Assembly: GCA_030688025.1 (NCBI GenBank)
Contig: JAUYJL010000009.1
Location: 1,503 to 65,502 of the forward strand
DNA: 64,000 nt
Source of the DNA: Candidatus Peregrinibacteria bacterium
GTDB lineage: Bacteria; Patescibacteriota; Gracilibacteria; UBA1369; LOWO2-01-FULL-3
Direction of reading: 5' to 3'
A program made the translations under genes and the position numbers. Of the stretch, positions 37,855 to 61,644 are shown one piece after another. How positions within the stretch are numbered: position 1 is the first letter of the stretch; each line of letters begins with the position of its first letter. The notes below the pieces were generated by a model. That model saw only the letters and a list, made by a program, of their open reading frames with translations. It did no database searches and was not told the DNA's origin.

Positions 37855-37957
37855 ATACTAAAAATTTTAGGTCTTTTGGCCATCGTACAAGAAATTGGAG
37901 GACTTGTCCACGAAATAAAATTCCCCCCAGATTCTAAAAGACCAATTTTCCCAAAAT

Positions 37958-37987
37958 TTGCATAGTTTTTTGTTTATTTGCTATAAT
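37958..37987 (+). promoter_or_regulatory. Promoter for the MNT/HEPN operon (apparently leaderless mRNA)
   Basis: TTGCAT (37958-37963), 18 nt, TATAAT (37982-37987). The MNT ATG at 37994 is only 6 nt downstream of the -10. Confidence 0.5.
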
Positions 37988-37993
37988 AAAAAC

Positions 37994-38287
37994 ATGACAG
38001 TTCAAGCATTAAAAAAACAGATCATTCCCACGTTGCAACGCCGAGGAGCAATAAAAATAGCAATTTTTGGGTCATTTGCTACAAGAAAAGAAAAAAAAAC
38101 AAGCGACGTTGATATTTTAGTAAAATTCAAAAATGAAGTTACTCTGCTTCAATTGTCAAATATGAAGCTGGAATTAGAAGATAAACTGGAAAGAAAAGTA
38201 GATCTCCTGACATATGGAGGCATAAATCCACGCCTAAAAAAGATCATTCTACAGGAACAAAAAATTATATATGAAAAAAGATCCTAA
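37994..38287 (+). CDS. Nucleotidyltransferase-domain antitoxin (MNT) of a HEPN/MNT module
   Basis: IAIFGSFATRKEKKTSDVDILVKF matches the GSxxRG...DxD minimal nucleotidyltransferase motif. It overlaps the HEPN gene by 17 nt. Confidence 0.85.
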   Translation: MTVQALKKQIIPTLQRRGAIKIAIFGSFATRKEKKTSDVDILVKFKNEVTLLQLSNMKLELEDKLERKVDLLTYGGINPRLKKIILQEQKIIYEKRS

Positions 38288-38663
38288 GATCTTTCTCGAA
38301 CATGTCCTAGAAAGCATCGAAGACATCGAAAAATACACAAAAGGACAGACTAAAGAAAAATTTGCAAAAGCAAAAATGATGCAAGATGCAGTCATTAGAA
38401 AATTTGAAATCATTGGGGAAGCAGTTAAAAATCTTCCACCGCCTTTTAGAAAAAAATACCCAAAAATTGCTTGGAGAGACATTGCGGGAATGAGAGATAT
38501 ACTCATACACGAATATTTTGGCATAAACATAAATGTTGTGTGGAAGACGGTACAAGAAGATCTCCCAAGCTTAAAAAGACAAATCACTGAACTTAATGAA
38601 AGCAGGCTTGAAATATCTGCCGGCAAAGGGAAAGTATTGAATTCATTAAAAGATTTGAGGTAA
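38271..38663 (+). CDS. HEPN (DUF86) toxin of a HEPN/MNT module
   Basis: RDILIHEY is the Rx4H HEPN motif. Size (130 aa) and pairing with MNT fit. Confidence 0.85.
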   Translation: MKKDPKIFLEHVLESIEDIEKYTKGQTKEKFAKAKMMQDAVIRKFEIIGEAVKNLPPPFRKKYPKIAWRDIAGMRDILIHEYFGININVVWKTVQEDLPSLKRQITELNESRLEISAGKGKVLNSLKDLR

Positions 38664-38675
38664 TATCGATCTCCT

Positions 38676-38819
38676 ATGGAGATAATTTACAGCTCAAAAT
38701 TTGCTCGAGAATACAAAAAACTGCCCAATAATATCAAATACAGAATAATCTTTGATATTTCAAAAGACAAAAATACGGTACATTTTCATGCGGTTGGAGA
38801 CCACGATATCTATCAATAA
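38676..38819 (+). pseudogene. Internally deleted RelE/ParE-like toxin remnant (47 codons)
   Basis: MEIIYSSKFAREYKKLPNNIKYRIIFDISKDKNTVHFHAVGDHDIYQ. The N-terminal F.reykkLp..ik and C-terminal yRiif.i......v.....vg.h.diY halves of a RelE/ParE fold are present but the middle is missing. There is no antitoxin partner. Confidence 0.4.
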
Positions 38820-38824
38820 TTTTT

Positions 38825-39649
38825 TCAAAGCGGACTTTTAATATTTCGAATACTCGACGCGGAAACCTGAGTATATCTTTGCGTGGTGCGGAGATTTTGA
38901 TGTCCCAAAAGAGTTTGTATGTAACGGATATCGGTGCCATTTTCGAGCAAATGAGTGGCAAAACTATGGCGAAGGCTGTGAAAAGTCGCGTCAGCAAAAA
39001 CGCCAGACTTTAAAAGTGCATTGCTAAAGATTTTTTGCGCAGTACGAGTGGTAAGTCGTCCACCTCGTTCACTTTCAAAAAGGAAATCATTTTTATCTCT
39101 TCCTGCAACAAAATCTATCAAAGGAGAAATCAACTTTTCCGGCAAAATGGTAATTCTGTCTTTATTGCCTTTTGCCTGTATTACGTAAATGATTTTCTCA
39201 GAAATATTCAAATCTTTAACTTTGATTTTTACAACTTCACTAACCCGAAGCCCAGCTCCATAAGCCAAAGAAATCATAAGTCGGTGTTTTAAGTTTGTTA
39301 TGGAATCAATAACTTTCAAAATGTCGTTTTTCGCCAAAACAACAGGAAGTTTCAGGGGTCGACGTGCAAATTTTATATCAATTTTGCAAAAGCATTTCAT
39401 GACATCTCTATAAAAAAACTTAATGGCATTGAGATAAAGATTCACAGTCTCAGGCGCATAATTTTTCAAATGTTTTTGTTTCAAAAAATCTTTAATAATT
39501 TCAACATCGGGAGAAGAAATATCTCTACCGACGAAGTTGAAAAACTCCCTCAAACAAGCCAAATAAGACTTCCTAGTCTGCGGGCTGTAATTTCTGATGA
39601 TGATTTCTCTTTCGGTCTGATTTATGTAAAAAGAATGTTCCATATACAC
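38825..39649 (-). CDS. Integron-integrase-like tyrosine recombinase lacking the IntI-specific additional domain
   Basis: RRPLKLPVVLAKNDI, LAYGAGLRVSEVVKIKVKDL, AKGNKDRITILPEKL, HSLRHSFATHLLENGTDIRYIQTLLGHQNLRTTQRYTQV and a C-terminal IKSPL. It is divergent from the cassette array with the attI-like site about 110 bp upstream. Confidence 0.9.
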   Translation of the reverse strand: MYMEHSFYINQTEREIIIRNYSPQTRKSYLACLREFFNFVGRDISSPDVEIIKDFLKQKHLKNYAPETVNLYLNAIKFFYRDVMKCFCKIDIKFARRPLKLPVVLAKNDILKVIDSITNLKHRLMISLAYGAGLRVSEVVKIKVKDLNISEKIIYVIQAKGNKDRITILPEKLISPLIDFVAGRDKNDFLFESERGGRLTTRTAQKIFSNALLKSGVFADATFHSLRHSFATHLLENGTDIRYIQTLLGHQNLRTTQRYTQVSASSIRNIKSPL

Positions 39650-42267: not shown

Positions 42268-43182
42268 ATGAAATTTCAATTAACGGAACCGAACAAACAA
42301 TATTCAAATGCTGAACTCATAGAAGATATTCAAAGAGTTGCAGGTGAGCTCGGCAAAAATTCTGTATCCCAACGAGAATATGATCGATTGGGCAATTTTT
42401 CGTATCAGACATTCAAAAAGAGGTTCGGTTCCTGGAAAAGTGCATTAAAAGAAGCTGGGCTTGAACAAAGCAAGCGTCCTTGGGGTGGTGATTTAACAGA
42501 AACACGCATACCCAAAGAACAGCTTATTGCAGATATGAAAAGAGTTGCAGGCGAACTGGAAAAACAAGCTATCACAATTGCTGATTATGATAAGCATGGA
42601 AAGTTTGGCTCTTCGGCAATCTGTAAAAGATTTGGTGGCTGGAACAAGGCAAAAGAAGCAGCAAATCTGAAAATCGGAAGAGTTTATAATTCAACAGACG
42701 AAGACTATTTTGAAAACATAGCTGATGTTTGGGAACATCTTGGTCGCCAACCACGATATCAAGAAATGACAGCACCACTTTCAAAATTAAATATATCATC
42801 ATACGAGCGAAAATTTGGAACATGGCGAAATGCTCTCGAAAAATTTGTTGAATATATAAACTCTAAAGACGACGCCGAAGAGCCGCAAGAAGCAATCGAG
42901 CCAAAGAAATCAGCAATTGTTCCTAAAAAAGAAGAGAAACCAATAAAAAAGCAGGTGGTTAAAAAAAGAACCAACCGCATTGCAAATCTACGACAGAGAT
43001 TTAGAGTAATGAAAAGAGATGGTTTCAAATGTGTATTGTGTGGAAGTTCGCCAGCAACTCAAGTAGGCTGTGAATTGCATATAGATCACATCATACCTTG
43101 GAGTAAAGGTGGTGAAACTGTAGAGGAAAATTTAAGGACGCTTTGTTCAAGCTGTAATTTAGGAAGATCAAATAAAGAATAA
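42268..43182 (+). CDS. Cassette 4: HNH endonuclease with three N-terminal ~55-aa repeats
   Basis: C-terminal CVLCGS...HIDHIIPWSKGGETVEENLRTLCSSCN is an HNH motif. The N-terminus has three copies of ...(Q/D)YD(R/K)...(F/Y)...KRFGSWK(S/N)AL.EAGL-type repeats (homing-endonuclease-associated repeat). Confidence 0.85.
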   Translation: MKFQLTEPNKQYSNAELIEDIQRVAGELGKNSVSQREYDRLGNFSYQTFKKRFGSWKSALKEAGLEQSKRPWGGDLTETRIPKEQLIADMKRVAGELEKQAITIADYDKHGKFGSSAICKRFGGWNKAKEAANLKIGRVYNSTDEDYFENIADVWEHLGRQPRYQEMTAPLSKLNISSYERKFGTWRNALEKFVEYINSKDDAEEPQEAIEPKKSAIVPKKEEKPIKKQVVKKRTNRIANLRQRFRVMKRDGFKCVLCGSSPATQVGCELHIDHIIPWSKGGETVEENLRTLCSSCNLGRSNKE

Positions 43183-44474: not shown

Positions 44475-46535
44475 ATGGAAATTAATTTCAAAAGTAAATT
44501 ATTTGAACTACTAAAAAGAGACCATCGTCTTTGGAATGAAGAGACCAAGGAATTCAATGAAACTCTTTTAAAAGATTTAGTGGATAAGCTGGATGAAAAT
44601 ATCCTCGAGCTACTTTTTAATAACGCGGAAACAAAAGAACGATTTTTCATAAAAATAAAGGATGTTTATGTATTAAAGCAAAACGAGTTAAAATTTTTCA
44701 TTGATGAAAATAAATTAGACAATTCATTTACCCAGCTTGCCAATAAAATTGGCCTCACCATAGATGACAAAAAAGACGAAAGGGTTGTTTTGAACTGGCC
44801 ATTTAAGGATTGTGTATTAGAGGGCGGCATGACAAAAGAAGACGCTGTTGATGTTTATTATAAATTTGATAAAAAGACCGGCGAATGGAAAGAGGAGGCC
44901 GCAAAGAGAAAAGAAATTTTCTTTAATGAAGTTTTAGCTCGCGATGAAATAGACCGGCTTGAAGATCCAAAAACTCTTTATAAGTGGCGAAGATTTACTG
45001 CTGAAAATTCTGAAAATGGAGAAGAGTTAAAAGAAATAAAGAGAGACGAAAAAGGGATTATAAAGGAAAATTTTGTAATCAAAGGCAATAATCTACTTTC
45101 ATTACATAGCTTAAAATCTCAATTTGAAGGGAAAATAAAACTTATCTACATAGATCCCCCATTTAACACTGGTAAGGATGAATTCAAGTATAATGACAAC
45201 TTTAATCATTCTGCATGGCTAACTTTCATGAAAAACAGGCTAGCGGTAGCAAAAGAATTATTAAGAGATGACGGCGTAATTTTTGTACACATTGGCAATG
45301 AGGAAGCGGCATATATGCAAGTTTTATTAGATGAAATTTTTAACAGGGAAAATTATTTGAATCATATTACAATGAGTACTAATGCGGCATCTGGATTTAA
45401 AGCTACCAGTGCTAAAATATTTTCAACAGCAAACCATATTTTTGTTTATGCCAAAAAAGCAGATAAGGGGTATTTGAATAAGTTATATACAAGAAAAGAA
45501 TATGATGATAGTTACGGATATTATTTACTAAATCCAAGCGAACCATATTCAAGATGGAAGTACAAAAAAATTATTGAAATACTCGCCGAAGAAAATGGAT
45601 TTAAAGATGTGAAATCTTTTCAGAAAAGTTTCGCCAAAGAAATTATACTGGAAAAAATAAAAAAATTTGCACATCTAAATAAGGAAAGAGTATTCCGGAC
45701 TGCAGCATTAGGCGGAGGCGCACTTACGAAAAGAAAAGTCACTGTAGAAAAATCCAAAAAAGAAAAAGGGGTTGTTCTCCAACATCCAAATGAAGACGTG
45801 AAAGGTTTTTATATTTTAAATGGAGAACAGATCGTTTTTTGGTCAAATACCTATAAAGAAATTGATGGAGATATTGTGCCAGCAACATCCCTCACAGATG
45901 TATGGACTGACATCGGTTTTACTGGAATCGCAAATGAGGGTGGTATAACCTTAAAAAATGGCAAAAAACCTGAACCTCTCCTTAAAAGGATAATTGAATT
46001 AGGATCAAGCGAAAATGATATAGTACTTGATTTCTTCGCTGGCAGTGGAACCACTTGCGCGGTGGCCCATAAAATGGGACGACAGTGGATTGCCATCGAA
46101 CAACTTGATTATTCTGATAATAACCCTGAGGAAAGAATGAAAGGGGTCATTGCTGGCGATCCTACTGGAATTTCCAAAACAATAAATTGGAAGGGTGGAG
46201 GTGACTTTATTTACACGCAACTGGCAAAATGGAATGAAGAGGCAAAAGAAAAAATTTCTGAAGCAAAATCTTATGATGAGTTAGTGAAGCTATTTTCATT
46301 GCTCTATGAAAAATATTTCCTAAATTATAATGTGCGAGCAAAAGATTTTAAAGAAAGCATAATAGAAAACAATGAATTCAAAAAACTTTCACTCGAAAGA
46401 CAAAAGGAAATATTTGGAAAAATGCTCGATCTAAACCAGATGTACATAAATTTCAGTGAAAGGAATGATAAAAAATATGAGCTAACATCAAGAGATATAG
46501 AACTCAGTGAAAAATTTTATAATGTGAAAAATTAA
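44475..46535 (+). CDS. mod: Cassette 7: Type III restriction-modification methyltransferase (Mod)
   Basis: LIYIDPPFNTGKDEF (motif IV, DPPF) precedes DFFAGSGTTCAVAHKMGRQWIAIE (motif I), a beta-class order typical of Type III Mod. The res gene follows immediately. Confidence 0.88.
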   Translation: MEINFKSKLFELLKRDHRLWNEETKEFNETLLKDLVDKLDENILELLFNNAETKERFFIKIKDVYVLKQNELKFFIDENKLDNSFTQLANKIGLTIDDKKDERVVLNWPFKDCVLEGGMTKEDAVDVYYKFDKKTGEWKEEAAKRKEIFFNEVLARDEIDRLEDPKTLYKWRRFTAENSENGEELKEIKRDEKGIIKENFVIKGNNLLSLHSLKSQFEGKIKLIYIDPPFNTGKDEFKYNDNFNHSAWLTFMKNRLAVAKELLRDDGVIFVHIGNEEAAYMQVLLDEIFNRENYLNHITMSTNAASGFKATSAKIFSTANHIFVYAKKADKGYLNKLYTRKEYDDSYGYYLLNPSEPYSRWKYKKIIEILAEENGFKDVKSFQKSFAKEIILEKIKKFAHLNKERVFRTAALGGGALTKRKVTVEKSKKEKGVVLQHPNEDVKGFYILNGEQIVFWSNTYKEIDGDIVPATSLTDVWTDIGFTGIANEGGITLKNGKKPEPLLKRIIELGSSENDIVLDFFAGSGTTCAVAHKMGRQWIAIEQLDYSDNNPEERMKGVIAGDPTGISKTINWKGGGDFIYTQLAKWNEEAKEKISEAKSYDELVKLFSLLYEKYFLNYNVRAKDFKESIIENNEFKKLSLERQKEIFGKMLDLNQMYINFSERNDKKYELTSRDIELSEKFYNVKN

Positions 46536-46537
46536 GT

Positions 46538-49321
46538 ATGAATGAGCAAAATTTACAACAGCTCATTGAATCAGAAATAGGTCGAAAGACCATTTCGAAA
46601 ATAGATTTGCCTGAATACATCACTACTAATTTAAGGCACGATTTTTGGTATTGGCAAAAAGAAGCATTGCAATATTTTTTTGCATTTGATGATCCTGTAT
46701 ACGAATTTGAGAAAATAGTGAATGAGCCAACTCACTTGATGTTTAACATGGCGACCGGCACAGGCAAAACCATGCTCATGGGAGCACTGATTTTATATTA
46801 CTACACAAAGGGTTATAAACACTTCATTTTCTTTGTAAACCAAAATAACATTGTAGATAAAACGGAAAATAATTTTATCAATAAAAGCCACACTAAATAT
46901 ATTTTCAGGCAGAGGACAGTAATAGATGACAAGACAATCAATATCCGCAAAGTTGAAACTTTTGACGAAACTGATGACATTCAAATTAAATTTGTTTCAA
47001 TTCATAAGCTTCACAACGATGTCTATTTAGCAAAAGAAAATTCCTTAACACTTCAGGAATTACAGACAAGAGATTTAGTCATGATCGGAGACGAAGCACA
47101 TCATTTTAACGCTTCCACAATAAAGAATGGCCAAACAGAAATTGAATTACCAACAGAACTAAAAGAGAATGCCAGTGATAAAGATATTGAGAAAAGCTGG
47201 GAAGATACGGTTTTAAATAAGATTTTGAGAAAAGGAAAAAGTAAACAAGATGTCGAGAATAAAAATGTTTTACTGGAATTTACTGCAACCATTCCTAAAA
47301 ATACAGATGTTATTGAAAAATACCACACAAAGATTATATATAAATTTGAACTCGTTGATTTTTTAAAGGCGGGATATACAAAGGAAATAAACTTAGTATC
47401 CACATCACTGAAAAAGAAAGAGAAAATTTTATTATCCTTGCTTTTTAATTGGTACCGTCATCAGATTGCACTAAAAAATAACATACCAAATTTTAAGCCA
47501 GTCATTCTTTTCAGAAGTAAACTTATTGAAGAATCAGAAAAAGATTATCAGGAATTTTGTTCAATTATTTCAAAACTAAATCCCTCAGATTTTGATTTCT
47601 TAAAAACTGTTGAGGATAGTATAAAACAAGATCAGGACAGTCTATTTAAAGTTTATGAACAAGGAAAAAGTCGCGTAAAGCAGCTTTTGCAGTTTATTAA
47701 GGACGAAAAAATCAACATTCGCCAGATACTGGATTACTTACAATCAGAATTTTCTGAAAAAAATTGCATTATTACGAACTCAAAAGATAACAATGCAACT
47801 ACTAAAGAAAAAACCTCAGAAGAGCAGGAGCAACTACTAAACAGCTTAGAAGATAAAAATAATCATACCCGTGCAATTTTTACGGTAAAACGACTTACTG
47901 AGGGCTGGGATGTATTAAATCTCTTTGATATAGTTAGACTCTATGAAGGAAGAGATGAGGGGCATAAAAACGGTAAAAGAATTGCCGGTCAAGCAACGAC
48001 TCAAGAAATACAACTAATCGGGCGTGGAGTCCGTTATTTCCCCTTTTCTTACAATGAGCATGAAAAAAACAAAAGAAAATTTGACAATGATTTAGAAAAT
48101 CCCCTCAGAGTTTTGGAAGAGTTTTATTATCACAGTGGAGGCGGTGATTTAGAAAAAGAACGCAGATATATTGATGAATTAAAACGAGAACTTAAAAATA
48201 AAGGATATATTCAAGAGAATAGATCACCAAAGAAATTTAGTTTGAAAGAAGAGTTTAAACAAACAGCTTTTTTTAGAGAGATAAAAGTGTGGAAGAATGA
48301 AAGAATAGAGAATCCGGAAAGGCGCCGACATACACTAACGGAATTGCAAAAGAATTTTATTTTTGAGTACAAAACAAAAGATTTGTCGTTAAGTGAGCAA
48401 CGTGTTGTTTTCGATAATGAGGTCGACGAAATGCTTGCTGAAAGTAAAAGTACAGAGAGAAAAACCTTAAACGTAAAAATTTCAGAGTTTGAAAAACATA
48501 TTGTATGGAAAGCTATAAACAGAAAAGCAAAAAAAGATTTATCGATTTTGCGCTTTGATAATTTGAAAGATGAATTGGATATTAAAAGTATTGATGAAAT
48601 TTTCTCCGATAATCTTCTTGGGGAATTTAAGGTAAATATTATTGTTTCAAAAACTAAAAATGGGTTCTCCGAAATAGATAACAAGGAAAAATTAGAAATA
48701 CTACTTTCCTTTTTTGATGAATTTACCAAGAAGCTAAAAGAAATTGCTAATCCATTCAAAGGAACAATGGATTTTATGCCGTTTTCATTTGGTCAACTTT
48801 TTGGCGAGGAAAAAAAGAAAAATGTGCTTATCGACGAAGAGAGTAAGGCTCTTGAGGTAGAGTTACTCCAACACAAATGGTATGTTTTAGACGGGTTTAA
48901 TGGAACAAGTGAGGAAAGAGATTTAATTGAATTTTTCAAAAACAAATTTGGCAATCTTGAAGAAAAATATGACGAAATTTATCTGCTCAGAAACGAGGAG
49001 GTATATAAACTCTATGATTTTGAACAGGGACGTGGATTTGAGCCAGATTTTTTACTTTTCCTGAAAGGTAAGGAAGGAAATTTATATTTCCAAGTATTTA
49101 TTGAGCCAAAAGGTAGTCAATTTACAGATAAAGAAGGTGGTTTCAAGGAAAGCAAAGAAGGATGGAAGGAAGAATTTTTACAACAAATTACAGATAAATA
49201 TGGCACTGGCAACTTATTAAAAGTAGAAAGTAAAAACTACAAATTGATCGGATTACCTTTATTCAACAAGCAAGAAGAACATTCCTTTGATACAGAATTT
49301 AGTAATCTGCTATTAAAATAG
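46538..49321 (+). CDS. res: Cassette 7: Type III restriction enzyme Res subunit (SF2 helicase-nuclease)
   Basis: Walker A is MATGTGKT and the DEAH box is MIGDEAHHF. Helicase motif VI-like QLIGRGVR is present, as is a C-terminal nuclease-like EPDFLLF...IEPKG (PD-ExK). Confidence 0.88.
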   Translation: MNEQNLQQLIESEIGRKTISKIDLPEYITTNLRHDFWYWQKEALQYFFAFDDPVYEFEKIVNEPTHLMFNMATGTGKTMLMGALILYYYTKGYKHFIFFVNQNNIVDKTENNFINKSHTKYIFRQRTVIDDKTINIRKVETFDETDDIQIKFVSIHKLHNDVYLAKENSLTLQELQTRDLVMIGDEAHHFNASTIKNGQTEIELPTELKENASDKDIEKSWEDTVLNKILRKGKSKQDVENKNVLLEFTATIPKNTDVIEKYHTKIIYKFELVDFLKAGYTKEINLVSTSLKKKEKILLSLLFNWYRHQIALKNNIPNFKPVILFRSKLIEESEKDYQEFCSIISKLNPSDFDFLKTVEDSIKQDQDSLFKVYEQGKSRVKQLLQFIKDEKINIRQILDYLQSEFSEKNCIITNSKDNNATTKEKTSEEQEQLLNSLEDKNNHTRAIFTVKRLTEGWDVLNLFDIVRLYEGRDEGHKNGKRIAGQATTQEIQLIGRGVRYFPFSYNEHEKNKRKFDNDLENPLRVLEEFYYHSGGGDLEKERRYIDELKRELKNKGYIQENRSPKKFSLKEEFKQTAFFREIKVWKNERIENPERRRHTLTELQKNFIFEYKTKDLSLSEQRVVFDNEVDEMLAESKSTERKTLNVKISEFEKHIVWKAINRKAKKDLSILRFDNLKDELDIKSIDEIFSDNLLGEFKVNIIVSKTKNGFSEIDNKEKLEILLSFFDEFTKKLKEIANPFKGTMDFMPFSFGQLFGEEKKKNVLIDEESKALEVELLQHKWYVLDGFNGTSEERDLIEFFKNKFGNLEEKYDEIYLLRNEEVYKLYDFEQGRGFEPDFLLFLKGKEGNLYFQVFIEPKGSQFTDKEGGFKESKEGWKEEFLQQITDKYGTGNLLKVESKNYKLIGLPLFNKQEEHSFDTEFSNLLLK

Positions 49322-49324
49322 GAA

Positions 49325-49379
49325 GTTTTCGGTCGGGGCAATTCACCCCTTTAGTTCCCCTCTTGCCCCTCCCTCAAAC
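49325..49379. repeat. Conserved-loop hairpin H1 (degenerate copy)
   Basis: GTTTTCGGTCGGGGCAA - TTCACCCCTTTAGTTCCCCTC - TTGCCCCTCCCTCAAAC, with 13/17 stem pairs. Confidence 0.6.
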
Positions 49380-49390
49380 AAGAAATAGGT

Positions 49391-49445
49391 GTTTTGGGTG
49401 GCGGGCATTCACCCCTTTAATTCCCCTCTGCCCACCACCCAAAAC
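49391..49445. repeat. Conserved-loop hairpin H2
   Basis: GTTTTGGGTGGCGGGCA - TTCACCCCTTTAATTCCCCTC - TGCCCACCACCCAAAAC, with 16/17 stem pairs. Confidence 0.75.
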
Positions 49446-49636: not shown

Positions 49637-49666
49637 GAAATAGACTTTACTACCTAAGTGCAAAAT

Positions 49667-50437
49667 ATGACAAACGATCAAACTAAAAAATTCTACGATG
49701 AACTATCGGCTGATTATCATTTGATTTTCGGTAATTGGGATAATGCAATAAAAAGACAATCAAAAATTTTAGATAACATTATCCAAAAATATTCAAAAAA
49801 CGAATCAAAAACGTTATTGGATTGTTCTTGCGGGATAGGAACACAAGCCATTGGATTAGCGAATCTTGGATATAAAGTTCATGCAACAGATTTAAGTCCA
49901 AAAGCAATTGTGAGAGCCAGATTAGAAGCAAACAAAAGGGGTGTTTCAATATCTTTCGATGTTGCCGATTTCAAGAAATTAGAAGATCAAGTTGAAGGAA
50001 CTTTTGATATTGTCATTTCTTGTGATAATTCATTACCACATTTATTAACAGACGAAGAATTGCTTTTGGCTGCAAAAAATATTCTTTCTAAAATGAAATC
50101 CAATAGCTTGTTTATCGCAAGCATCAGAGATTATGACCAACTTTTGGAAGACAAACCAATTAGCACTCAACCAAACGTAAAAGATTTTACAAAGGAAAGA
50201 ACAATTTCTTTTCAAGTGTGGGATTGGGATGAAAATAATGTTTATACTGTTAATCATTTTACTCTGAAAGGAATTAATGAAAAATTTGATACGTTTTTGA
50301 GAACAACTAAATATAGAGCATATAAACGCGATGAAATGTCTAAAATTTTTAAAGAAGCAGGATTTATCGAAATCAAATGGTTAATGCCGAATGAATCAGA
50401 ATACTATCAGCCGATAATAATTGCGTTGAAACCGTAA
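49667..50437 (+). CDS. Cassette 8: class I SAM-dependent methyltransferase (small-molecule type)
   Basis: LLDCSCGIGTQAIGLANLGYKVHATDLS (motif I and the post-I acidic residue). The start is set at ATG 49667 (MTNDQ) rather than GTG 49658. Confidence 0.8.
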   Translation: MTNDQTKKFYDELSADYHLIFGNWDNAIKRQSKILDNIIQKYSKNESKTLLDCSCGIGTQAIGLANLGYKVHATDLSPKAIVRARLEANKRGVSISFDVADFKKLEDQVEGTFDIVISCDNSLPHLLTDEELLLAAKNILSKMKSNSLFIASIRDYDQLLEDKPISTQPNVKDFTKERTISFQVWDWDENNVYTVNHFTLKGINEKFDTFLRTTKYRAYKRDEMSKIFKEAGFIEIKWLMPNESEYYQPIIIALKP

Positions 50438-50449
50438 AGTCTACATCAC

Positions 50450-50591
50450 ATAACACGGTATATGGGGTTCAGAAAATTTCACTCAAAAGATTTAAAAGGA
50501 ATGTGAAATTTTCTTCTCCCAAATTTGCCTCACACTATTGATAAAAATTAAGGAGTTCGGCAAACTTCCCATATACCGAAACGTTGTGCGA
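50450..50591 (+). other. attC 8 (R'' ACATAAC ... R' GTTGTGC)
   Basis: L'' CGGTATATGGG pairs with L' CCCATATACCG. An inner hairpin is GAAAATTTCAC...GTGAAATTTTC. The R'-side spacer is AAAC. Length is 142 bp. Confidence 0.85.
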
Positions 50592-50761
50592 AATATTTTT
50601 CAATATTTTTTCTTTAATAAGGAATTTTTGTTGAAGAATTTAAAAAAGGATGGAATTTTTATTTTAATGAGGGGGATATAATGTATTTTTTGCTCCGTTC
50701 CTCCGCAAAAAATGGATTTAATATTTAATGGAAAATCAGTATAATACCACTGTAAAACACT

Positions 50762-51598
50762 ATGGCTAAAAAAACTCAATCAAAAAGATTAACGAATCAG
50801 CATAAAAAATCTCAAGGTGTAGTCGGTATATTCTGTAACGAAGCAAAGTTACATGATAAAACGGTTTGTAAAATTTCATACCTTGTAATTGAACAACTTA
50901 AAAAGGAACTTCCTCAGTTATCTTTTAGATATAGAACGTGTATAAAAAAGGAAGAAATAAACAAAGCGTTAAAGAAAATTGATCCAGAATTGGGGCAAAC
51001 CCTTTTTGTGCCAAATTCAAGTATTATTCCAGATGGTGGTATAATTGAAGTAAAAGATGATAGTGGTAATTGGAGAGTAGTACTTGTAACAGAAGCTAAA
51101 CATCAAGGAAAAGACATTGAAAATATACAAATAGGAAATCTAGTTGGTAAAAATAACAATCAAGACTTAATGGCTGCTGGCAATGCCATAGAAAGATCGC
51201 ATAAAAACATATCAGAAATTGCCAACTTTATGCTATATGAATCCCATTTCCCCTATATCTTATTCCTGGAAGGATCAAATTTTCTTACTAAAACTATTTC
51301 AATTAAAAGACCTGACGGAAGAGTGGTTACTCTTAATTATAACTCAGGCATGTTAAATAGATTGGATAGATTAACTTGTGCAAATTATGGAATGCCAATT
51401 AACACTAATTTATGTAAAAATAAATTTGTTAAACATAAAGATAAAACGATTATGCTTCAAGCAGCTTCAATTTTTACACAAGGAAATGGAGGAAAGTGGG
51501 ATGTAAAAGAAATGTTTGATATTATGATTGAAATTTCAAAAACCTCTCTTCAAGTATTAGGAAGTGAAATATTTAAACAAATAACCAAGCGAAAATAA
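50762..51598 (+). CDS. Cassette 9: EcoRI-family Type II restriction endonuclease
   Basis: Near-colinear similarity, from memory, to R.EcoRI. This includes PQLSFRYR, IIPDGGIIEVKDD, WRVVLVTEAKHQGKDI (catalytic D...E-A-K), QDLMAAGNAIERSHKNISEIANFM, FLEGSNFLT, YGMPIN and IMLQAASI. Length is 278 aa versus 277 aa for EcoRI. Confidence 0.88.
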   Translation: MAKKTQSKRLTNQHKKSQGVVGIFCNEAKLHDKTVCKISYLVIEQLKKELPQLSFRYRTCIKKEEINKALKKIDPELGQTLFVPNSSIIPDGGIIEVKDDSGNWRVVLVTEAKHQGKDIENIQIGNLVGKNNNQDLMAAGNAIERSHKNISEIANFMLYESHFPYILFLEGSNFLTKTISIKRPDGRVVTLNYNSGMLNRLDRLTCANYGMPINTNLCKNKFVKHKDKTIMLQAASIFTQGNGGKWDVKEMFDIMIEISKTSLQVLGSEIFKQITKRK

Positions 51599-51627
51599 GA
51601 GATTTATTCATTTAACATAATCTGATA

Positions 51628-52683
51628 ATGGCAAGAAATGCAACAAACAAATTATTGCAAAAAGCTAAGGAATCAAAGAGTGATGAGTTTTACACTCAAC
51701 TTTCAGATATAGAAAGTGAATTGCAACACTACAAAGGTCATTTTAAGGACAAAGTGGTTTTTTGTAATTGCGATGACCCTAAAATTAGCAACTTCTTTAA
51801 CTATTTTGCTTCAAACTTCAAAGAGTTGGGATTAAAAAAAATAATAGCTTCTTGTCATAGAAAACAAGAAAGAAATTTATTTAATACTAAAGAATTTGAA
51901 AGTGGTTATTTTTATGAATATTCAGGTGCTCCGGGAGAAAAAATAAACCCAAGTTCAAATGACATGATTCATTTTAAAGGAGATGGCGATTTTCGCAGCA
52001 CTGAAAGCATTGAACTATTAAAACAATCCGATATTATTGTTACTAATCCACCATTTTCGTTATTCAGGGATTTCGTAGGTCAATTGGTAAAATATGATAA
52101 AAAATTTTTGATAATAGGCAACGTTAATGCTATTACCTATAAAGAAATTTTTAAATTAATTAAGAAAAACAAGGCGTGGCTAGGAATAAATCTAGGTAGA
52201 GGTATTTCAGGTTTTATTGTACCAGAACATTACGAGCTTTACGGAACGGAAGCTCGTATCGATAGTCTTGGAAATAGAATAATCTCCCCAAATAACTGTT
52301 TATGGCTAACTAATTTAGACACATCCAAAAGGCACGAAGACATTATTCTTACAAAGAGATATTTTGGAAACGAAATTGATTATCCCCGTTACGATAACTA
52401 TGATGGAATTAATATAGATAAAACAAAAGATATTCCTTTAGATTATGCAGGCGTTATGGGAGTACCAATAACCTTTTTACATAAATACAATTCAGAGCAG
52501 TTTGAAATCATTAAATTTAGAAAAGGAAATGATGAGAAAGATTTGTCAGTAAACGGGAAATGTCCTTATTTTAGAATCTTAATCAGAAATAAACGCATAC
52601 AGAAGACTGGCAGTTGTCATGCAAGAATTGCAACAGATCAATGTCAGGAATATAAAATGATACCAATACAAACTTTATTATGA
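51628..52683 (+). CDS. Cassette 9: EcoRI-family N6-adenine DNA methyltransferase
   Basis: MARNATNKLL..SKSDEFYTQ, CNCDDP, GDGDFRS, IIVTNPPFSLF (motif IV NPPF), YDKKFLIIGNVN, GFIVPEHYELYGTEARID, NNCLWLTNLD, GVMGVPITFLHK and CPYFRILI all follow M.EcoRI as I remember it. There is an extra ~25-aa tail. Confidence 0.88.
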   Translation: MARNATNKLLQKAKESKSDEFYTQLSDIESELQHYKGHFKDKVVFCNCDDPKISNFFNYFASNFKELGLKKIIASCHRKQERNLFNTKEFESGYFYEYSGAPGEKINPSSNDMIHFKGDGDFRSTESIELLKQSDIIVTNPPFSLFRDFVGQLVKYDKKFLIIGNVNAITYKEIFKLIKKNKAWLGINLGRGISGFIVPEHYELYGTEARIDSLGNRIISPNNCLWLTNLDTSKRHEDIILTKRYFGNEIDYPRYDNYDGINIDKTKDIPLDYAGVMGVPITFLHKYNSEQFEIIKFRKGNDEKDLSVNGKCPYFRILIRNKRIQKTGSCHARIATDQCQEYKMIPIQTLL

Positions 52684-54176
52684 TAAAGACAATAACCATC
52701 CAAAATTTTAGAGGTATAAGGGAACTAAAAGATTTTGAACTCAAAAATCTTTCATTGCTTGTTGGTGAAAATGGAACAAGTAAAACCTCTATTTTAGAAG
52801 CGATAAATTTTTGTCTTTCTCCTTATTTTATATCTGGAAGAATTAAACATACAGATTTTTACAAAGGTGAAGATATTGAGATAAAAATTATTTTGGAATT
52901 TGATGAAAATTTCAAAGTCTTTTTGCCTGATGGCTATACCAAACAAGAGGTTGAGTGCAATAAGGTTTGTTTAGAAATAAAAAAAAGAGATAGGGCGACT
53001 CCCAAAAAGGCATTTTCGGACATTGTTGTTGTTTCTCATTATGTTTTACCAAGCAAAGAAAAAGATAATGAAAATGGTTGGGAGATAACACGAGGAACGG
53101 GATCAAAATTTAAATTTGATGAAAGACGGTTGTCTTTTCCTTTGGAGTCAGAAGGGCTACCAAAAAGTTTTTATTTTCCAAAAAACCGAGAAAAACAATT
53201 GCAGAGAGGCTTTAATTCTTCTATTTCTTCAGTTTTTGATGACTTTAATTGGAGATTCAATAAAGAAGTAAGAAAAATTGAAACAGAAGAAAATTTTAGT
53301 GGAGAAAAATTTACATCTCAAAAAAATAATTTTGAATCAAGTATTTTAGAAAAAATTGATGAACAATCACAACAAAAGACATTCCAGACACTAAACGAAA
53401 AACTGGAAAAAGTAGGTTTACCAAAAGCTGATCTTTCACTAATTGATTGCAATGCGCCTTTTGACAATGCTTTTCTTTCTCAAAAATTAGAATGTTTAGA
53501 CTTGCCTATATCTCAACTTGGGTCAGGTGTTGAAATGGTTGTTTCTTTATTGTTTTTAGAAACAATGGCAGAAATTTCAAAAGAAAATATCTTGATTTTA
53601 ATTGATGAACCAGAGCTACACCTACACCCAGATTTACAAAATAATTTTATTGATCACATAGTATCAATTTCTGAAAAAAATCAATTTCTATTTTCTACTC
53701 ACTCCCCACTTTTCGTTAAACAAACATTAAATAATGAAAATGGAAAAATTCAAATTCATTGTTTGGAAAAAGAAAATGGAGAAGTAAAAATTTTAGAATT
53801 AGAAAAAAGAGTTTTGCCGTATGTTTCAGCTAACGAAGTAAATTTTATTGCTTTTGGGTTAGCAACAGAAGAATATCACAATGAACTTTATAATGAGATT
53901 GAAATAAATTTTTGGAATGATCCAGATAATGATTTTAAAACATTGAAACAAAACGGAAGTTATGACAATAATGACTGTCGTCAAATTATTTTTGATAACG
54001 AATTTTTCTCAAAATTTAAACAAGAACAAATAGATAGTCCTTTTAGGACTACTCAAAATAAAGTAACAATCCACACCTACATTAGAAATAGAATTCATCA
54101 CTCTAAAGAAAATGGAGAAAGTCCAACAACACAAGAATTAAAACAATCCATAGAGAAAATGCGAGGATTTCTTTAA
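52680..54176 (+). CDS. Cassette 9: ABC/OLD-like (AAA_15/21-type) ATPase with a non-TOPRIM C-terminal domain
   Basis: Walker A GENGTSKTS, Walker B ILILIDEPELHLHP and H-loop FSTHSP. The ~115-aa C-terminus has no DxD/TOPRIM motif but contains RNRIHH (an Rx4H pattern). The start codon overlaps the methyltransferase stop (ATGA). Confidence 0.75.
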   Translation: MIKTITIQNFRGIRELKDFELKNLSLLVGENGTSKTSILEAINFCLSPYFISGRIKHTDFYKGEDIEIKIILEFDENFKVFLPDGYTKQEVECNKVCLEIKKRDRATPKKAFSDIVVVSHYVLPSKEKDNENGWEITRGTGSKFKFDERRLSFPLESEGLPKSFYFPKNREKQLQRGFNSSISSVFDDFNWRFNKEVRKIETEENFSGEKFTSQKNNFESSILEKIDEQSQQKTFQTLNEKLEKVGLPKADLSLIDCNAPFDNAFLSQKLECLDLPISQLGSGVEMVVSLLFLETMAEISKENILILIDEPELHLHPDLQNNFIDHIVSISEKNQFLFSTHSPLFVKQTLNNENGKIQIHCLEKENGEVKILELEKRVLPYVSANEVNFIAFGLATEEYHNELYNEIEINFWNDPDNDFKTLKQNGSYDNNDCRQIIFDNEFFSKFKQEQIDSPFRTTQNKVTIHTYIRNRIHHSKENGESPTTQELKQSIEKMRGFL

Positions 54177-54182
54177 TAAGGT

Positions 54183-54231
54183 GTTTTTCTTTTTCCAATT
54201 CACCCCTAACCCCTCTTGGAAAAAGAAAAAC
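54183..54231. repeat. Conserved-loop hairpin H3
   Basis: GTTTTTCTTTTTCCAA - TTCACCCCTAACCCCTC - TTGGAAAAAGAAAAAC, a perfect 16-bp stem. Confidence 0.75.
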
Positions 54232-54308
54232 GAAAAATAAAAATTCCAAATAGAAATAAAATTCTTCAACAAAAGAATAAGGAATGAAAAAATATTGAAA
54301 AATACATC

Positions 54309-54435
54309 GCACAACAACTCATATCTGGCTCAAGAAATTGACACATTAATATTTCAAAGGAAAGTCAATTTCTTTCGACCCAAATTTTTGCTTCACTACG
54401 TTTTGCAAAAACTTCAGATATGAGTAACGTTAGCC
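54309..54435 (+). other. attC 9 (R'' GCACAAC ... R' GTTAGCC)
   Basis: L'' CTCATATCTGG pairs with L' CAGATATGAG. An inner hairpin is GAAATTGAC...GTCAATTTC. The R'-side spacer is TAAC. Confidence 0.85.
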
Positions 54436-54662
54436 GAAATACATTTTTACTATTCCCTTTTTGTCGCTCCGCTTTTCGGACTTTTAATAAGGAGGGGCGA
54501 ATTGATTCTTTATTTTTAGAGGGGGGGGCTGTCTGCCTTTGGCAGCCAGTAAGGTATTTTCTTGCTCCCTTCGGTCGCTACGAAAAATTTAGAATTATTT
54601 TAGAAATATTTAATAATTGCATGATATAATCACTACGAAATTTTAAATAAATCAGAATAAAT

Positions 54663-56255
54663 ATGAACACAACAGAACAAAACGAATTATTAAGTATTCA
54701 AGAAGCAAGCACATGGGCTAGCTCATTTTTGAAGCGCGTCGTTACAGAAAGCAACATTTCATATCTAATTCAGTATGGCAGAGTTAGAAAAATTGGAGAA
54801 AATGGCACAACTCAAATAATAAAAGCAGATTTACTTAGATATTACGAAAAAAGTCGCCCTAGTCGTGAAATATCATGGAAAAAAACGCTTGGAGATGACT
54901 TAAACTGGTCTTTATCTTTTGAACAATATAGAGAATCTGAAACCACAAAGCATGTTCATCGGTTACATCCATACAAAGGAAAATACATTCCTCAACTTGT
55001 TGAGTATTTTTTAGACGATCACACGGATAATTTTAAGAAACAAACTTATTTTAAAAAGGGTGACATCATTCTTGATCCATTTTGTGGAAGTGGAACAACG
55101 CTTGTGCAAGCAAATGAATTGGGTATGCACTCAATCGGGATAGATATTTCCGCCTTCAATTCCTTAATTTCAAACATTAAAATTGGAAAACATGACTTTG
55201 AAGAACTCACCCTGGTAATTAAGCAAATTACTAACAACTTGGAAAAAATTTTAAAGGACGCACACGCAATAGATTTTGAATCAGAACTATTAAAAGAGCT
55301 AAATCAATTCAATTCAAAAAATTTCCCCTCTCCGGAATTTAAGTACAAAATACGCCAAGGACAGGTTGATGAAAGAAAATTTGGAAGCGAAAAAGAAAAA
55401 GAATTTCTGAAAATTTACGATACATTGGTCAAAAAGTATGGAATTAAATTAAAACAACAAAAAAATGAAACATTCTTAGATAAATGGTATCTACAAGCAA
55501 TCAGAGATGAAATAAATTTCATGTTTGAGCAAATTAAGCAAATCAAAAATCCAGACATCAAAAAAGTAATAAGTGTTATTTTAAGCCGTACTATCAGATC
55601 TTGCCGTGCAACAACCCATTCAGATTTAGCAACGCTCAAGGAGCCACAAATAACAACTTATTATTGCAAAAAGCACGGGAAAATGTGCAAACCTCTTTTT
55701 TCAATTTTGAGCTGGTGGAAGCGATATGCTCAAGACACAATGTATAGGTTTAAACAATTCGAAAAATTACGAACTGATACAAAACAAATTTGCTTAACAG
55801 GTGATTCAAGAGAAATAGATATTTTTGGAGAACTAGATAACCGTTATCCCGATTTTGCTAAAATCGTAAAAACTCAAAAGATTAAAGGTATTTTTTCTTC
55901 ACCTCCTTATGTTGGATTGATTGATTATCACGAACAACATGCCTACGCCTATGATCTCTTCGGATTTAAGCGCAAAGACGAATCTGAAATAGGCCCGCTT
56001 TTTCGAGGACAAGGATTAGAAGCAAGAAAAAGCTATATTGAAGGGATTTCATCTGTACTGCTAAATTGCAAAAAATTTCTAGCAGATGATTTCTCCATAT
56101 TTTTAGTAGCCAATGATAAATGGGGTATGTATCCTGAAATTGCTAAAAAAGCAGGACTAAAAATTGTTGAAGAATTTAAAAGACCCGTTTTAAACCGTAC
56201 CGAAAAAGACAAAGGAGCGTATTCAGAGATAATTTTTCACTTAAAAAATAATTAA
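54663..56255 (+). CDS. Cassette 10: DNA methyltransferase (N4-C/N6-A amino-methyltransferase, SPPY motif, alpha-like order)
   Basis: ILDPFCGSGTTLVQANELGMHSIGIDIS (motif I) lies about 270 aa before IFSSPPYVGLIDY (motif IV). The N-terminal segment LSIQEASTWAS... looks like a small HTH. Confidence 0.82.
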   Translation: MNTTEQNELLSIQEASTWASSFLKRVVTESNISYLIQYGRVRKIGENGTTQIIKADLLRYYEKSRPSREISWKKTLGDDLNWSLSFEQYRESETTKHVHRLHPYKGKYIPQLVEYFLDDHTDNFKKQTYFKKGDIILDPFCGSGTTLVQANELGMHSIGIDISAFNSLISNIKIGKHDFEELTLVIKQITNNLEKILKDAHAIDFESELLKELNQFNSKNFPSPEFKYKIRQGQVDERKFGSEKEKEFLKIYDTLVKKYGIKLKQQKNETFLDKWYLQAIRDEINFMFEQIKQIKNPDIKKVISVILSRTIRSCRATTHSDLATLKEPQITTYYCKKHGKMCKPLFSILSWWKRYAQDTMYRFKQFEKLRTDTKQICLTGDSREIDIFGELDNRYPDFAKIVKTQKIKGIFSSPPYVGLIDYHEQHAYAYDLFGFKRKDESEIGPLFRGQGLEARKSYIEGISSVLLNCKKFLADDFSIFLVANDKWGMYPEIAKKAGLKIVEEFKRPVLNRTEKDKGAYSEIIFHLKNN

Positions 56256-56256
56256 T

Positions 56257-57054
56257 ATGGCACTATCAAAAGATTTACAACAGAAGGTTTATGAATTTCT
56301 AAAGGGGAAAATCCTTAAAAAAATTGATGAATACAACTTGAGCGATGAAGACTCATCAAAACCTTTTCAATATGCTCTTTTTACAAAAAAGGGTTACTTG
56401 GCTAAAGGATTTATTCATGGATGTGAAACAGCACTTGGAAATTGGCACGAAACCATAGCGAAAATTATTGCCACTGAAAATTTTGCAACTGCAAATAAAT
56501 TACAAGGACAAAACAAATTAAAAGGTAAAATCACAAGAGAGGCACAAAGAACATCTGAAAATATTTTAAGTGATCTTGATAGCGTTAAGAGAGAACCAAA
56601 TCACAAGTCAGAGTCAGAAGAAATTTTTAATGCTAGCCAAAACCTCGAACAAACAGAGGACAGAATACAAACTGTTGATCTCTACCTAGAAACAAAAGAC
56701 GGTGAAGAAATTTATTTTGAAATAAAGGGACCTAAGCCAAATAAAAACGAAATGAGAGCAGCAAAAAGAGATTTGCTAGAAATATATGCAATGAGATCAG
56801 CGGAAGGCAAGAAAGTAAAAATTTATTTAGGCATGTACTACAACCCATATTATCCCGAAGAGTACCAAAGATGGACATGTATAAAATTCTTTGATAAAGG
56901 TAATGACTTTCTTATTGGCAAAGACTTTTGGGACTTTTTAGGCGGAAACGGAGCTTATGAGGAATTAATTGATATTTATGAAAAAGTCGGAGAAAAAATA
57001 AGACCAGTGCTAGATCAAAAGTTCAAGGACATTGCAAAAAATCAAGAAGAATAA
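56257..57054 (+). CDS. Cassette 10: PD-(D/E)xK Type II restriction endonuclease (family uncertain, possibly TdeIII-like)
   Basis: VDLYLETKDGEEIYFEIKGPKPN fits D-Xn-E-X-K. The gene starts 2 nt after the methyltransferase stop. The family name is only a recollection. Confidence 0.6.
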   Translation: MALSKDLQQKVYEFLKGKILKKIDEYNLSDEDSSKPFQYALFTKKGYLAKGFIHGCETALGNWHETIAKIIATENFATANKLQGQNKLKGKITREAQRTSENILSDLDSVKREPNHKSESEEIFNASQNLEQTEDRIQTVDLYLETKDGEEIYFEIKGPKPNKNEMRAAKRDLLEIYAMRSAEGKKVKIYLGMYYNPYYPEEYQRWTCIKFFDKGNDFLIGKDFWDFLGGNGAYEELIDIYEKVGEKIRPVLDQKFKDIAKNQEE

Positions 57055-57057
57055 AGT

Positions 57058-57106
57058 GTTTTGGCTCGGGCAATTCACCCCCGGCCCCTCTTGCCCTCGC
57101 CAAAAC
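57058..57106. repeat. Conserved-loop hairpin H4
   Basis: GTTTTGGCTCGGGCAA - TTCACCCCCGGCCCCTC - TTGCCCTCGCCAAAAC, with 14/16 stem pairs. Confidence 0.7.
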
Positions 57107-61084: not shown

Positions 61085-61271
61085 CTTGCGGTGGCGGGGG
61101 TAGTTGAGGCAAACGCGACCACAGGAAAATGACAAACTGTGCTCGCGATGATATAGTTTGTGGTGAAGAAGCTGAGAGACAATTAGCGGAGGAGCCAAGG
61201 TCGTCCTAAACCTTCCGCTAACCCCATCCTTTACTATGCAGGTTATTCCAGCCCATATTCAATTCCATCTT

Positions 61272-61432
61272 CCACGGATTACGCCTCATCCTCTCCACCC
61301 TTGCTCCACGGATTACGCCTCATCCACTCCACCCTTGCTCCACGGATTACGCCTCGTCCACTCCACCCTTGCTCCACGGATTACACCTCATCCACTCCAC
61401 CTTTACTCCAAGGATTACATCTTAGAATTCTC
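61272..61432. repeat. 34-bp tandem repeat (about 4.7 units) derived from the 3' end of yidD
   Basis: Units lie at 61272, 61306, 61340 and 61374, with a degenerate unit at 61408. The consensus is CCACGGATTACGCCTCATCCACTCCACCCTTGCT. The reverse complement encodes ...NPWSKGGVDE(A/V)*, the YidD C-terminus plus stop. Confidence 0.9.
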
Positions 61433-61644
61433 CAAACAGTTTTCAAGCTTCCCAAAACCAGCCCATGCTTTTTCAAGGCAACACGAGAATATTCCGAACA
61501 ACTCGGCTTAAACTTACAATACCCCTGCGGGAAAAACACCTTAAGTAAGCCATGATCAGGCGACAACGTCTTTTGATAAAGACCAACGAAAAAAGCCGCC
61601 GTATTTCTCGGCAGCTTCCATATATATAGTAAAACCTTCTTCAT
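61381..61644 (-). CDS. yidD: Membrane protein insertion efficiency factor YidD
   Basis: CKFKPSCSEYSRVALKKHG...RILRCNPWSKGGVD is the YidD signature. Length is 87 aa. Confidence 0.9.
   Translation of the reverse strand: MKKVLLYIWKLPRNTAAFFVGLYQKTLSPDHGLLKVFFPQGYCKFKPSCSEYSRVALKKHGLVLGSLKTVWRILRCNPWSKGGVDEV

Follow-up and report, generated by a model that had tools for sequence, protein, structure and literature searches.

What does an ATPase gene contribute at the end of a restriction-modification (R-M) operon, and does its presence make that operon a defence system of a new kind? The question is raised by a 64,000-nucleotide stretch of DNA from a Candidatus Peregrinibacteria bacterium (contig JAUYJL010000009.1 of assembly GCA_030688025.1, positions 1,503 to 65,502; hereafter the window), in which genes for an EcoRI-like endonuclease (R.EcoRI-like) and an EcoRI-like methylase (M.EcoRI-like) are followed by a gene for a protein with an N-terminal ABC ATPase domain and a C-terminal domain of its own (Table 1). 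A preliminary description of the locus had compared the ATPase with those of several defence proteins and, on the basis of a single motif, the C-terminal domain with HEPN ribonucleases (RNases). We consider it fairly probable that the ATPase protein is a self-contained phage-defence sensor-effector, namely an ATP-regulated HEPN RNase that would serve as an abortive-infection backup carried within R-M loci.

An ABC ATPase fused to a putative HEPN domain

The open reading frame (ORF) of the ATPase is a real gene: more than 1000 homologues, about 488 residues long, align with its product from end to end. Its ATG start codon (52680-52682) overlaps the TGA stop codon of the methylase gene (52681-52683) as ATGA (52680-52683), and the ATPase is translationally coupled to M.EcoRI-like, as the preliminary description had it. 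The N-terminal domain belongs to the AAA_15/AAA_21 type, and its Walker A, ABC signature, Walker B and H-loop motifs are invariant or nearly so among the 85 homologues over which ATPase motif conservation was scored. Thermus OLD (6p74) was the best match in a sequence search of the PDB (1.9e-14), with retron and Septu PtuA, GajA and Rad50 among the closest solved relatives, and it was also the top Foldseek match of the ATPase model (1.7e-15), followed by PtuA, Rad50 and GajA. Matches of the full protein in Pfam, NCBIfam and PADLOC (2.0) are confined to this ATPase part. No TOPRIM or DUF4435 domain was detected in Pfam, NCBIfam or the best 25 of the 154 PADLOC matches, which bears out both the ATPase type proposed earlier and the reported lack of the TOPRIM domain of OLD nucleases.

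The C-terminal domain, earlier noted as unrecognised and as containing RNRIHH, indeed carries that motif (residues 469-474), and no Pfam, NCBIfam or PADLOC 2.0 model covers it. As a consequence, annotation of the family says only 'AAA family ATPase' or 'OLD-family endonuclease' (source annotations of homologues read 'AAA family ATPase', 'ATP-dependent endonuclease of OLD family' or 'ATP-dependent nuclease'). When a profile of the C-terminal 125 residues was searched against 1.84 billion proteins, 1060 cluster representatives were retrieved. In the best 150 of them the domain is C-terminal within the matched sequence, AAA_15 or AAA_21 is present in all seven that were scanned with Pfam, and short matches look like fragments. 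Because it is found only fused to the AAA_15 ATPase among the representatives searched, the domain is an obligate partner of it.

Conservation within the domain was scored over 257 distinct domain sequences. R469 and H474 are the only residues that are 100% invariant; H473 is 98.8% conserved and E386, E398 and E402 are 95-97% conserved, while the residue following R469 is polar, being N in 82% and H in 14% of the domains (together 96%). HEPN domains are described as having a four-helix core, a conserved acidic residue in helix 2, frequent inserts between helices 2 and 3, and a catalytic motif at the end of the penultimate helix, this motif being a conserved Rx4-6H with a polar residue after the arginine, of which the form R-polar-x3-H marks metal-independent HEPN RNases (PMC3710099). 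The secondary-structure layout of the AlphaFold2 model (Table 1), in which the predicted local distance difference test score (pLDDT) of the domain is about 88-96 within the full-length model and 85 when it is modelled alone, fits each of these points.

Database matches of the domain, all of them sub-threshold, lean in the same direction. Individual members matched HEPN_RiboL-PSP (0.009), HEPN_Apea (0.05) and HEPN_Swt1 (0.09) in Pfam, these three being HEPN families among the 22 families matched, and domain members matched Cas13a (two models, five member matches) and CARF_HEPN_Csx20 (1.7e-4) in PADLOC, among six families matched. The top two Foldseek matches of the C-terminal model, at a non-significant E = 3-4, are Csx1 and Las1, both of which we take to be HEPN RNases. 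On account of the predicted HEPN layout, the invariance of R469 and H474 and the one-sidedness of the sub-threshold HEPN matches, the domain is very probably a divergent HEPN domain. The earlier guess has thus gained support well beyond one motif match, through the invariance of R469 and H474, their location at the end of the penultimate helix and the sub-threshold HEPN matches. A reading of the hairpin-helix element as a His-Me/HNH nuclease was also considered and ruled out, the hairpin having no conserved His or Asn.

Genomic neighbourhoods of the family

The family comprises more than 1000 clusters at 50% identity, and its members are spread over many bacterial phyla and at least one archaeal metagenome-assembled genome. 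We examined their context in 55 genome loci carrying a full-length homologue, in which R-M genes were recognised by a limited seed set. R-M genes lie within three genes of the ATPase gene in 28 of the 55 loci, and they make up 21% of the genes directly next to it but about 1% of those eight or more genes distant, a gradient that serves as an internal control. The upstream neighbour is on the same strand in 46 of the 55 loci and within 25 nt in 29. The preliminary description had left it as a question whether homologues always accompany R-M genes: the ATPase gene is operonic with them in the window and in about half of the related loci, and the linkage is not obligatory, as stand-alone copies occur on a plasmid and in a prophage.

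Partner systems are diverse, including type I, type III, FokI, AlwI and EcoRI-like methylase genes, to which Pfam scans add Eco57I-type, C5-methylase and GmrSD/HNH genes. The usual place of the ATPase gene in type I loci is either between hsdS and hsdR, where prrC is situated in the EcoprrI locus, or between hsdM and hsdS. RhuM and Fic genes accompany the homologues repeatedly, HNH_5 endonuclease genes flank the ATPase gene in about five of the 55 loci and RhuM genes in several, and no partner gene conserved across the whole family was found among the loci examined. RhuM and Fic/Doc genes, together with R-M genes, have been linked to ABC-HEPN proteins before (PMC3710099).

All five closest relatives that were looked up (79-85% identical) are in R-M operons, four of type I and one following an EcoRI-family methylase. 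In the latter case, the ATPase is 85% identical to that of the window and the methylase only 40%, indicating that the ATPase gene moves between R-M loci on its own and has entered them repeatedly. Of the stand-alone copies, one is a single gene between insertion sequence (IS) elements on a Klebsiella IncFIB plasmid, and another, annotated 'ATP-dependent nuclease', lies beside the integrase of an E. coli prophage; both have kept the C-terminal motifs.

Several individual loci are unusual in their own right. At a type IIG R-M locus (L016, 5500-9452), a 759-residue RloC-like protein (AAA_13, with 'wobble nucleotide-excising tRNase' homologues) is encoded directly upstream of a family member, so that two different ABC-ATPase-nuclease genes stand side by side. 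In two others (L086, 4884-9835, and L023, 5872-9401), EcoRI-family methylases adjoin GmrSD_N and HNH proteins, with the ATPase gene present in both, RhuM in L086 and no EcoRI-type endonuclease nearby; these loci may represent an R-M variant pairing an M.EcoRI-like enzyme with a DUF262/HNH nuclease.

Candidate mechanism, alternative explanations and known relatives

In the mechanism that we favour, the N-terminal OLD-type ABC ATPase would be both sensor and switch, with two inserts (approximately residues 50-160 and 180-250) as its likely trigger-binding parts. The effector would be the C-terminal 125 residues, a HEPN-type metal-independent RNase whose active site would consist of R469 and H474, aided by the acidic residues E386 (helix 1), E398 and E402 (both helix 2). 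With PrrC/RloC and ABC ATPases at large as models, nucleotide-dependent head dimerisation or a trigger-induced change would pair two HEPN domains, and the active RNase would then cut transfer RNA (tRNA) or other RNA, whereupon translation would stop and the infection would be aborted. Residence in R-M operons would provide co-expression and co-transfer, as well as a second layer of defence when restriction fails. Given the variety of R-M partners and the existence of stand-alone copies, we think that the protein works autonomously, without being held silent by direct contact with a specific R-M enzyme.

Several results weigh against this proposal. Neither by sequence nor by structure does the C-terminal domain significantly match a known HEPN protein in Pfam, NCBIfam, PADLOC, the PDB or BFVD. 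Structural comparison, to which the preliminary description had looked for an assignment, gave no significant match (Foldseek against the PDB and BFVD, E = 3.3 or worse), even if Csx1 and Las1 came out on top, and when the domain alignment was run as a profile against the PDB, the sole match, to PRMT3, was spurious. An hhalign comparison of the domain profile with an RloC C-terminal profile, built from 15 sequences (the L016 neighbour gene and its homologues), was not significant either (P = 0.063, probability 0.9%); in this non-significant alignment, IRNxIHHPEN is placed over LDEYSHEEN, the His of IHHPEN falling on that of YSHEEN. The HEPN fold itself is a prediction, its layout being read from secondary structure, and any clustering of R469, H474, E398 and E402 in space is presumed. 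Furthermore, a literature search found no biochemical or phage-challenge data for any family member, and roughly half of the loci have no R-M gene nearby, so a role as second layer of R-M may not be general.

The closest competing explanation is a strict guard of the PrrC type, in which the protein would be silenced by binding the co-encoded R-M enzyme (M.EcoRI-like or R.EcoRI-like) and freed when a phage anti-restriction protein disables that enzyme. The type I R-M enzyme to which PrrC is linked keeps it silent in this way until a phage anti-restriction factor activates it (PMC2610378, PMC3458546, PMC3710099), the family occupies the operon position of prrC in type I loci, between hsdS and hsdR, and start/stop overlaps with adjoining R-M genes are common. 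However, near-identical ATPases (79-85%) are found next to unrelated EcoRI-family methylases as well as in type I loci, and more distant members follow type III, FokI and AlwI genes; a single surface docking on all of these enzymes is unlikely, and the stand-alone plasmid and prophage copies show that no R-M partner is required. We rank direct silencing by an R-M enzyme second to an autonomous switch-RNase, and judge it quite unlikely. Another explanation would deny the C-terminal domain any nuclease activity: it would serve in regulation, oligomerisation or target binding, and the ATPase would either rely on a separately encoded effector or modulate R-M itself. No enzyme shows significant homology to the domain, non-catalytic HEPN domains are on record (PMC3710099), the related ATPases AriA and PtuA use separate effectors, and HNH_5 or RhuM genes stand next to some members. 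Against this, no partner gene is conserved family-wide, and on the Klebsiella plasmid the gene stands by itself, with IS elements on either side. An Arg and a His that never vary, accompanied on three helices by several conserved residues of acidic or polar character, are moreover what one expects of an active site and not of an interface. We regard this explanation as improbable.

The protein could also be a DNA nuclease of OLD-like build, with a small DNase domain of a new kind standing in for TOPRIM and degrading phage or host DNA instead of RNA. This would agree with the OLD-type names given to homologues by their annotators, with the proximity of the ATPase to OLD and with the beta-hairpin that precedes the helix bearing the His-His pair. 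Yet neither a TOPRIM, a PD-(D/E)xK nor an HNH model matches, the hairpin lacks any invariant His or Asp, a metal site of the DxD type is missing, and the invariant R-polar-x3-H is the signature of metal-independent HEPN RNases (PMC3710099); we regard a DNase as very improbable. Going beyond the autonomous RNase, the family may be conceived of as a general 'R-M guardian', recruited repeatedly into type I, II, IIS and III operons, which would sense a cue that arises whichever of these systems fails (candidates are anti-restriction proteins that mimic DNA and a build-up of DNA that is unmodified or broken). The effector fired would then belong to a HEPN subfamily not classified before, or perhaps to a new nuclease fold. 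We hold this extension to be unlikely; if true, it would concern a widespread defence family, given the number of clusters and the phyla in which they are found.

Among known systems, PrrC and RloC resemble the family most in organisation: both combine an N-terminal Rad50/SMC-like ABC ATPase with a small C-terminal domain carrying a HEPN motif, and likeness extends to embedding in R-M operons, at the prrC position in type I loci, with RhuM and Fic/Doc genes as neighbours. In contrast, the ATPase of the family is of the OLD/AAA_15 type, AAA_13 (PF13166) is absent from the Pfam matches listed at E <= 1, and the true AAA_13 protein of locus L016 is a separate neighbouring gene. R-M partner types are moreover diverse and stand-alone copies common, whereas prrC is always R-M-linked according to PMC3458546. 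The family is not PrrC/RloC, as it has no AAA_13 match.

OLD itself is similar in its AAA_15/AAA_21 ATPase (PADLOC Old model, 1.9e-25; Thermus OLD as best PDB match), but differs by its C-terminal TOPRIM domain (catalytic Glu and DxD), the C-terminal 125 residues of the family being helical with one hairpin. In PARIS, an anti-restriction protein sets off an abortive response (PMC9122126), and the TOPRIM partner AriB is reported to degrade tRNA (bioRxiv 10.1101/2024.01.02.573894). The ATPase falls in the same clade and matches the PADLOC AriA model at 5.5e-37, over the ATPase part only; however, the PDB entry of E. coli AriA matches at no better than 2e-4, and the cassette contains, in place of a DUF4435/TOPRIM AriB gene, a fused HEPN-like domain. 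GajA models of Gabija likewise match the ATPase part only, with neither a TOPRIM domain nor a GajB helicase gene in the cassette. PtuA models of Septu match at 1e-20 over partial stretches, and the cassette has no HNH (PtuB) gene. Lacking TOPRIM, the family is not OLD, Gabija or PARIS, and lacking an obligate HNH partner, it is not Septu.

Further ABC-HEPN families, APECO1_4465 and ERFG_01251, were catalogued by Anantharaman et al. 2013 (PMC3710099), and the family shares with them an ABC ATPase followed by a C-terminal HEPN domain. The APECO1_4465 family is frequent in E. coli prophage islands and R-M operons (PMC3710099), and the E. coli member of our family likewise stands beside a prophage integrase. 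The two may be one and the same family; the ATPase-family gene was not found in the one guessed 50-kb region of the APEC O1 genome that was inspected. ABC-ATPase defences nested in other multi-gene immune operons have also been reported (HEC-01 to HEC-04; Payne et al. 2024, bioRxiv 10.1101/2024.01.29.577857), but the HEC ATPases tested pair with TOPRIM, NERD or PIN domains, and not with a fused HEPN domain. Literature searches for a named system with an OLD-type ATPase and a C-terminal HEPN-like domain found none.

The architecture and context of the protein thus repeat the known theme of PrrC/RloC and of ABC-HEPN proteins in R-M loci. Because the latter was described in 2013 (PMC3710099), the earlier proposal of a composite module unlike any known system does not hold, the PrrC paradigm and the embedding of ABC-ATPase defences reported in 2024 (bioRxiv 10.1101/2024.01.29.577857) being further precedents. 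Should the C-terminal domain be an active RNase, a large ABC-HEPN defence family would nevertheless have that domain missing from Pfam, NCBIfam and PADLOC 2.0. Its repeated insertion into unrelated types of R-M operon also offers a clean case for telling backup of the surrounding system from hitch-hiking.

The cassette and its surrounding array

By sequence, the R and M genes of the cassette are an EcoRI-family type II R-M system, full-length homologues of the EcoRI endonuclease and methylase. The R.EcoRI-like protein aligns over its full length with EcoRI (PDB 1ckq; E = 6.5e-131, about 70% identity as read off the alignment), and the catalytic PD...EAK region is kept. In the M.EcoRI-like protein, about 30 residues past the end of the Pfam match (residue 321 of 351) are non-homologous and lead into the ATGA overlap (52590-52683); this tail looks like a recombination junction joining the ATPase gene to the methylase gene.

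Together the three genes make up a single integron cassette of some 3.85 kb (approximately 50584-54430), as the preliminary description had supposed, since they are bracketed by two attC-like sites whose bottom strands fold far better than shuffled sequences (-24.5 kcal/mol, z = -4.9, for the upstream site and -24.6 kcal/mol, z = -5.5, for the downstream one). The upstream site contains repeat families D2, D7 and D8, common to eight or nine other attC-like sites. About ten attC-like sites lie beyond the recombinase in the window, with a common inner repeat and a GTTRRRY-like R' core, and z values of bottom-strand folds in the window range from -4.9 to -5.8. There are published examples of integron arrays with many compact defence genes, type II R-M being the commoner kind (bioRxiv 10.1101/2024.07.02.601686, Darracq et al. 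2024); compared with the defence cassettes of that study, the present one is unusually large, with three genes. A unit of restriction enzyme, methylase and putative RNase in one cassette means that integrons can move multi-layer defence modules, and not only single small genes.

Table 1. Position of the ATPase gene, its domains and motifs, and other features of the window
Feature	Position	Strand	Basis or detail
ABC ATPase with putative HEPN domain, 498 residues	52680-54176	+	ORF; AlphaFold2 model, pLDDT 82.5
OLD-type ABC ATPase domain, residues 1-346	52680-53717	+	AAA_15 6.5e-31; AAA_21 3.2e-14
Walker A, G29-ENGTSKT-36 (K35-T36)	52764-52787	+	
ABC signature LGSG (residues 281-283)	near 53514-53537	+	
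Walker B, ILLIDE310 (D309-E310)	53586-53615	+	
H-loop, T-H341-SP	53697-53708	+	
Putative HEPN RNase domain, residues 375-498 (~125 residues)	53802-54173	+	AlphaFold2 models; conservation
Predicted helix 1 of C-terminal domain	residues 384-392		S383, E386, N388
Predicted helix 2 of C-terminal domain	residues 397-412		E398, H400, N401, E402, Y404
Variable insert with beta-hairpin	between helices 2 and 3		
Predicted helix 3 of C-terminal domain	residues 464-473		ends in RNxIHH motif; followed by loop
Predicted helix 4 of C-terminal domain	residues 484-497		
Rx4H motif, R469-N-R-I-H-H474	54084-54101	+	end of helix 3
R.EcoRI-like type II restriction endonuclease, 278 residues	50762-51598	+	Pfam EcoRI 1.4e-146, full length; PADLOC REase_II
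M.EcoRI-like N6-adenine methyltransferase, 351 residues	51628-52683	+	Pfam EcoRI_methylase 7.2e-130 (residues 10-321); PADLOC MTase_II 6.8e-150
attC-like site closing preceding cassette	50443-50591		R' core GTTGTGC, 50583-50589, is start of R-M-ATPase cassette
attC-like site of R-M-ATPase cassette	54300-54438		R'' GCACAAC near 54308; R' GTTAGCC 54429-54435; repeat family D8
Conserved motif GTGTTTT..CAATTCACCCC..CCCCTCTTG just past ATPase stop codon	54175-54218	+	repeat families D14, D19; alignment
Tyrosine recombinase next to array	38825-39649	-	NCBIfam models, below cut-offs
HNH protein with homing-endonuclease repeats, cassette	42268-43182		
Type III Mod and Res pair, cassette	44475-49321		~5.4 kb
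Lone S-adenosylmethionine-dependent methyltransferase cassette	49658-50437		
N6/N4 methylase and TdeIII-type endonuclease cassette	54663-57054		

The recombinase next to the array scores 213 bits on the 'XerA_Arch/integron integrase' model (cut-off 220) and 188 bits on TIGR02249 (cut-off 265). The archaeal XerA/'integron integrase' model thus scores best, and two stretches of the classical IntI model are absent. The backbone gene adjoining the recombinase (region 36829-39649 of the window) carries DUF1246/DUF1297, which we take to be a PurP-type domain typical of archaea. Such features would suit an archaeon or an unusual lineage with a non-classical integron. The larger cassettes of the window hold mostly DNA-modification or restriction genes, the array acting as a bank of R-M systems.

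Three R-M cassettes share the GTGTTTT motif of Table 1 at or just after their last stop codon (49322-49445, 54175-54218 and 57050-57093); it lies upstream of each attC and is doubled after the type III res gene. This motif could be a terminator-like or cassette-associated element, or the trace of a common origin. A scan of the R-M-ATPase cassette for sigma-70 promoters and terminators found 26 sites against 20.1 +/- 4.6 in shuffled sequences, that is, no excess, and the host may not use such promoters. Active restriction of the EcoRI type might have left GAATTC, the presumed target of the EcoRI-like enzyme, under-represented, yet the window shows no such avoidance: it holds 26 sites, where 21-28 are expected. 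One GAATTC (54091-54096) falls inside the R-I-H codons (AGA ATT CAT) of the conserved motif of the ATPase itself. Finally, a 34-nt unit, TCCACGGATTACGCCTCATCCACTCCACCCTTGC, is present in five tandem copies at 61237-61440, in or beside a small ORF (61236-61511).

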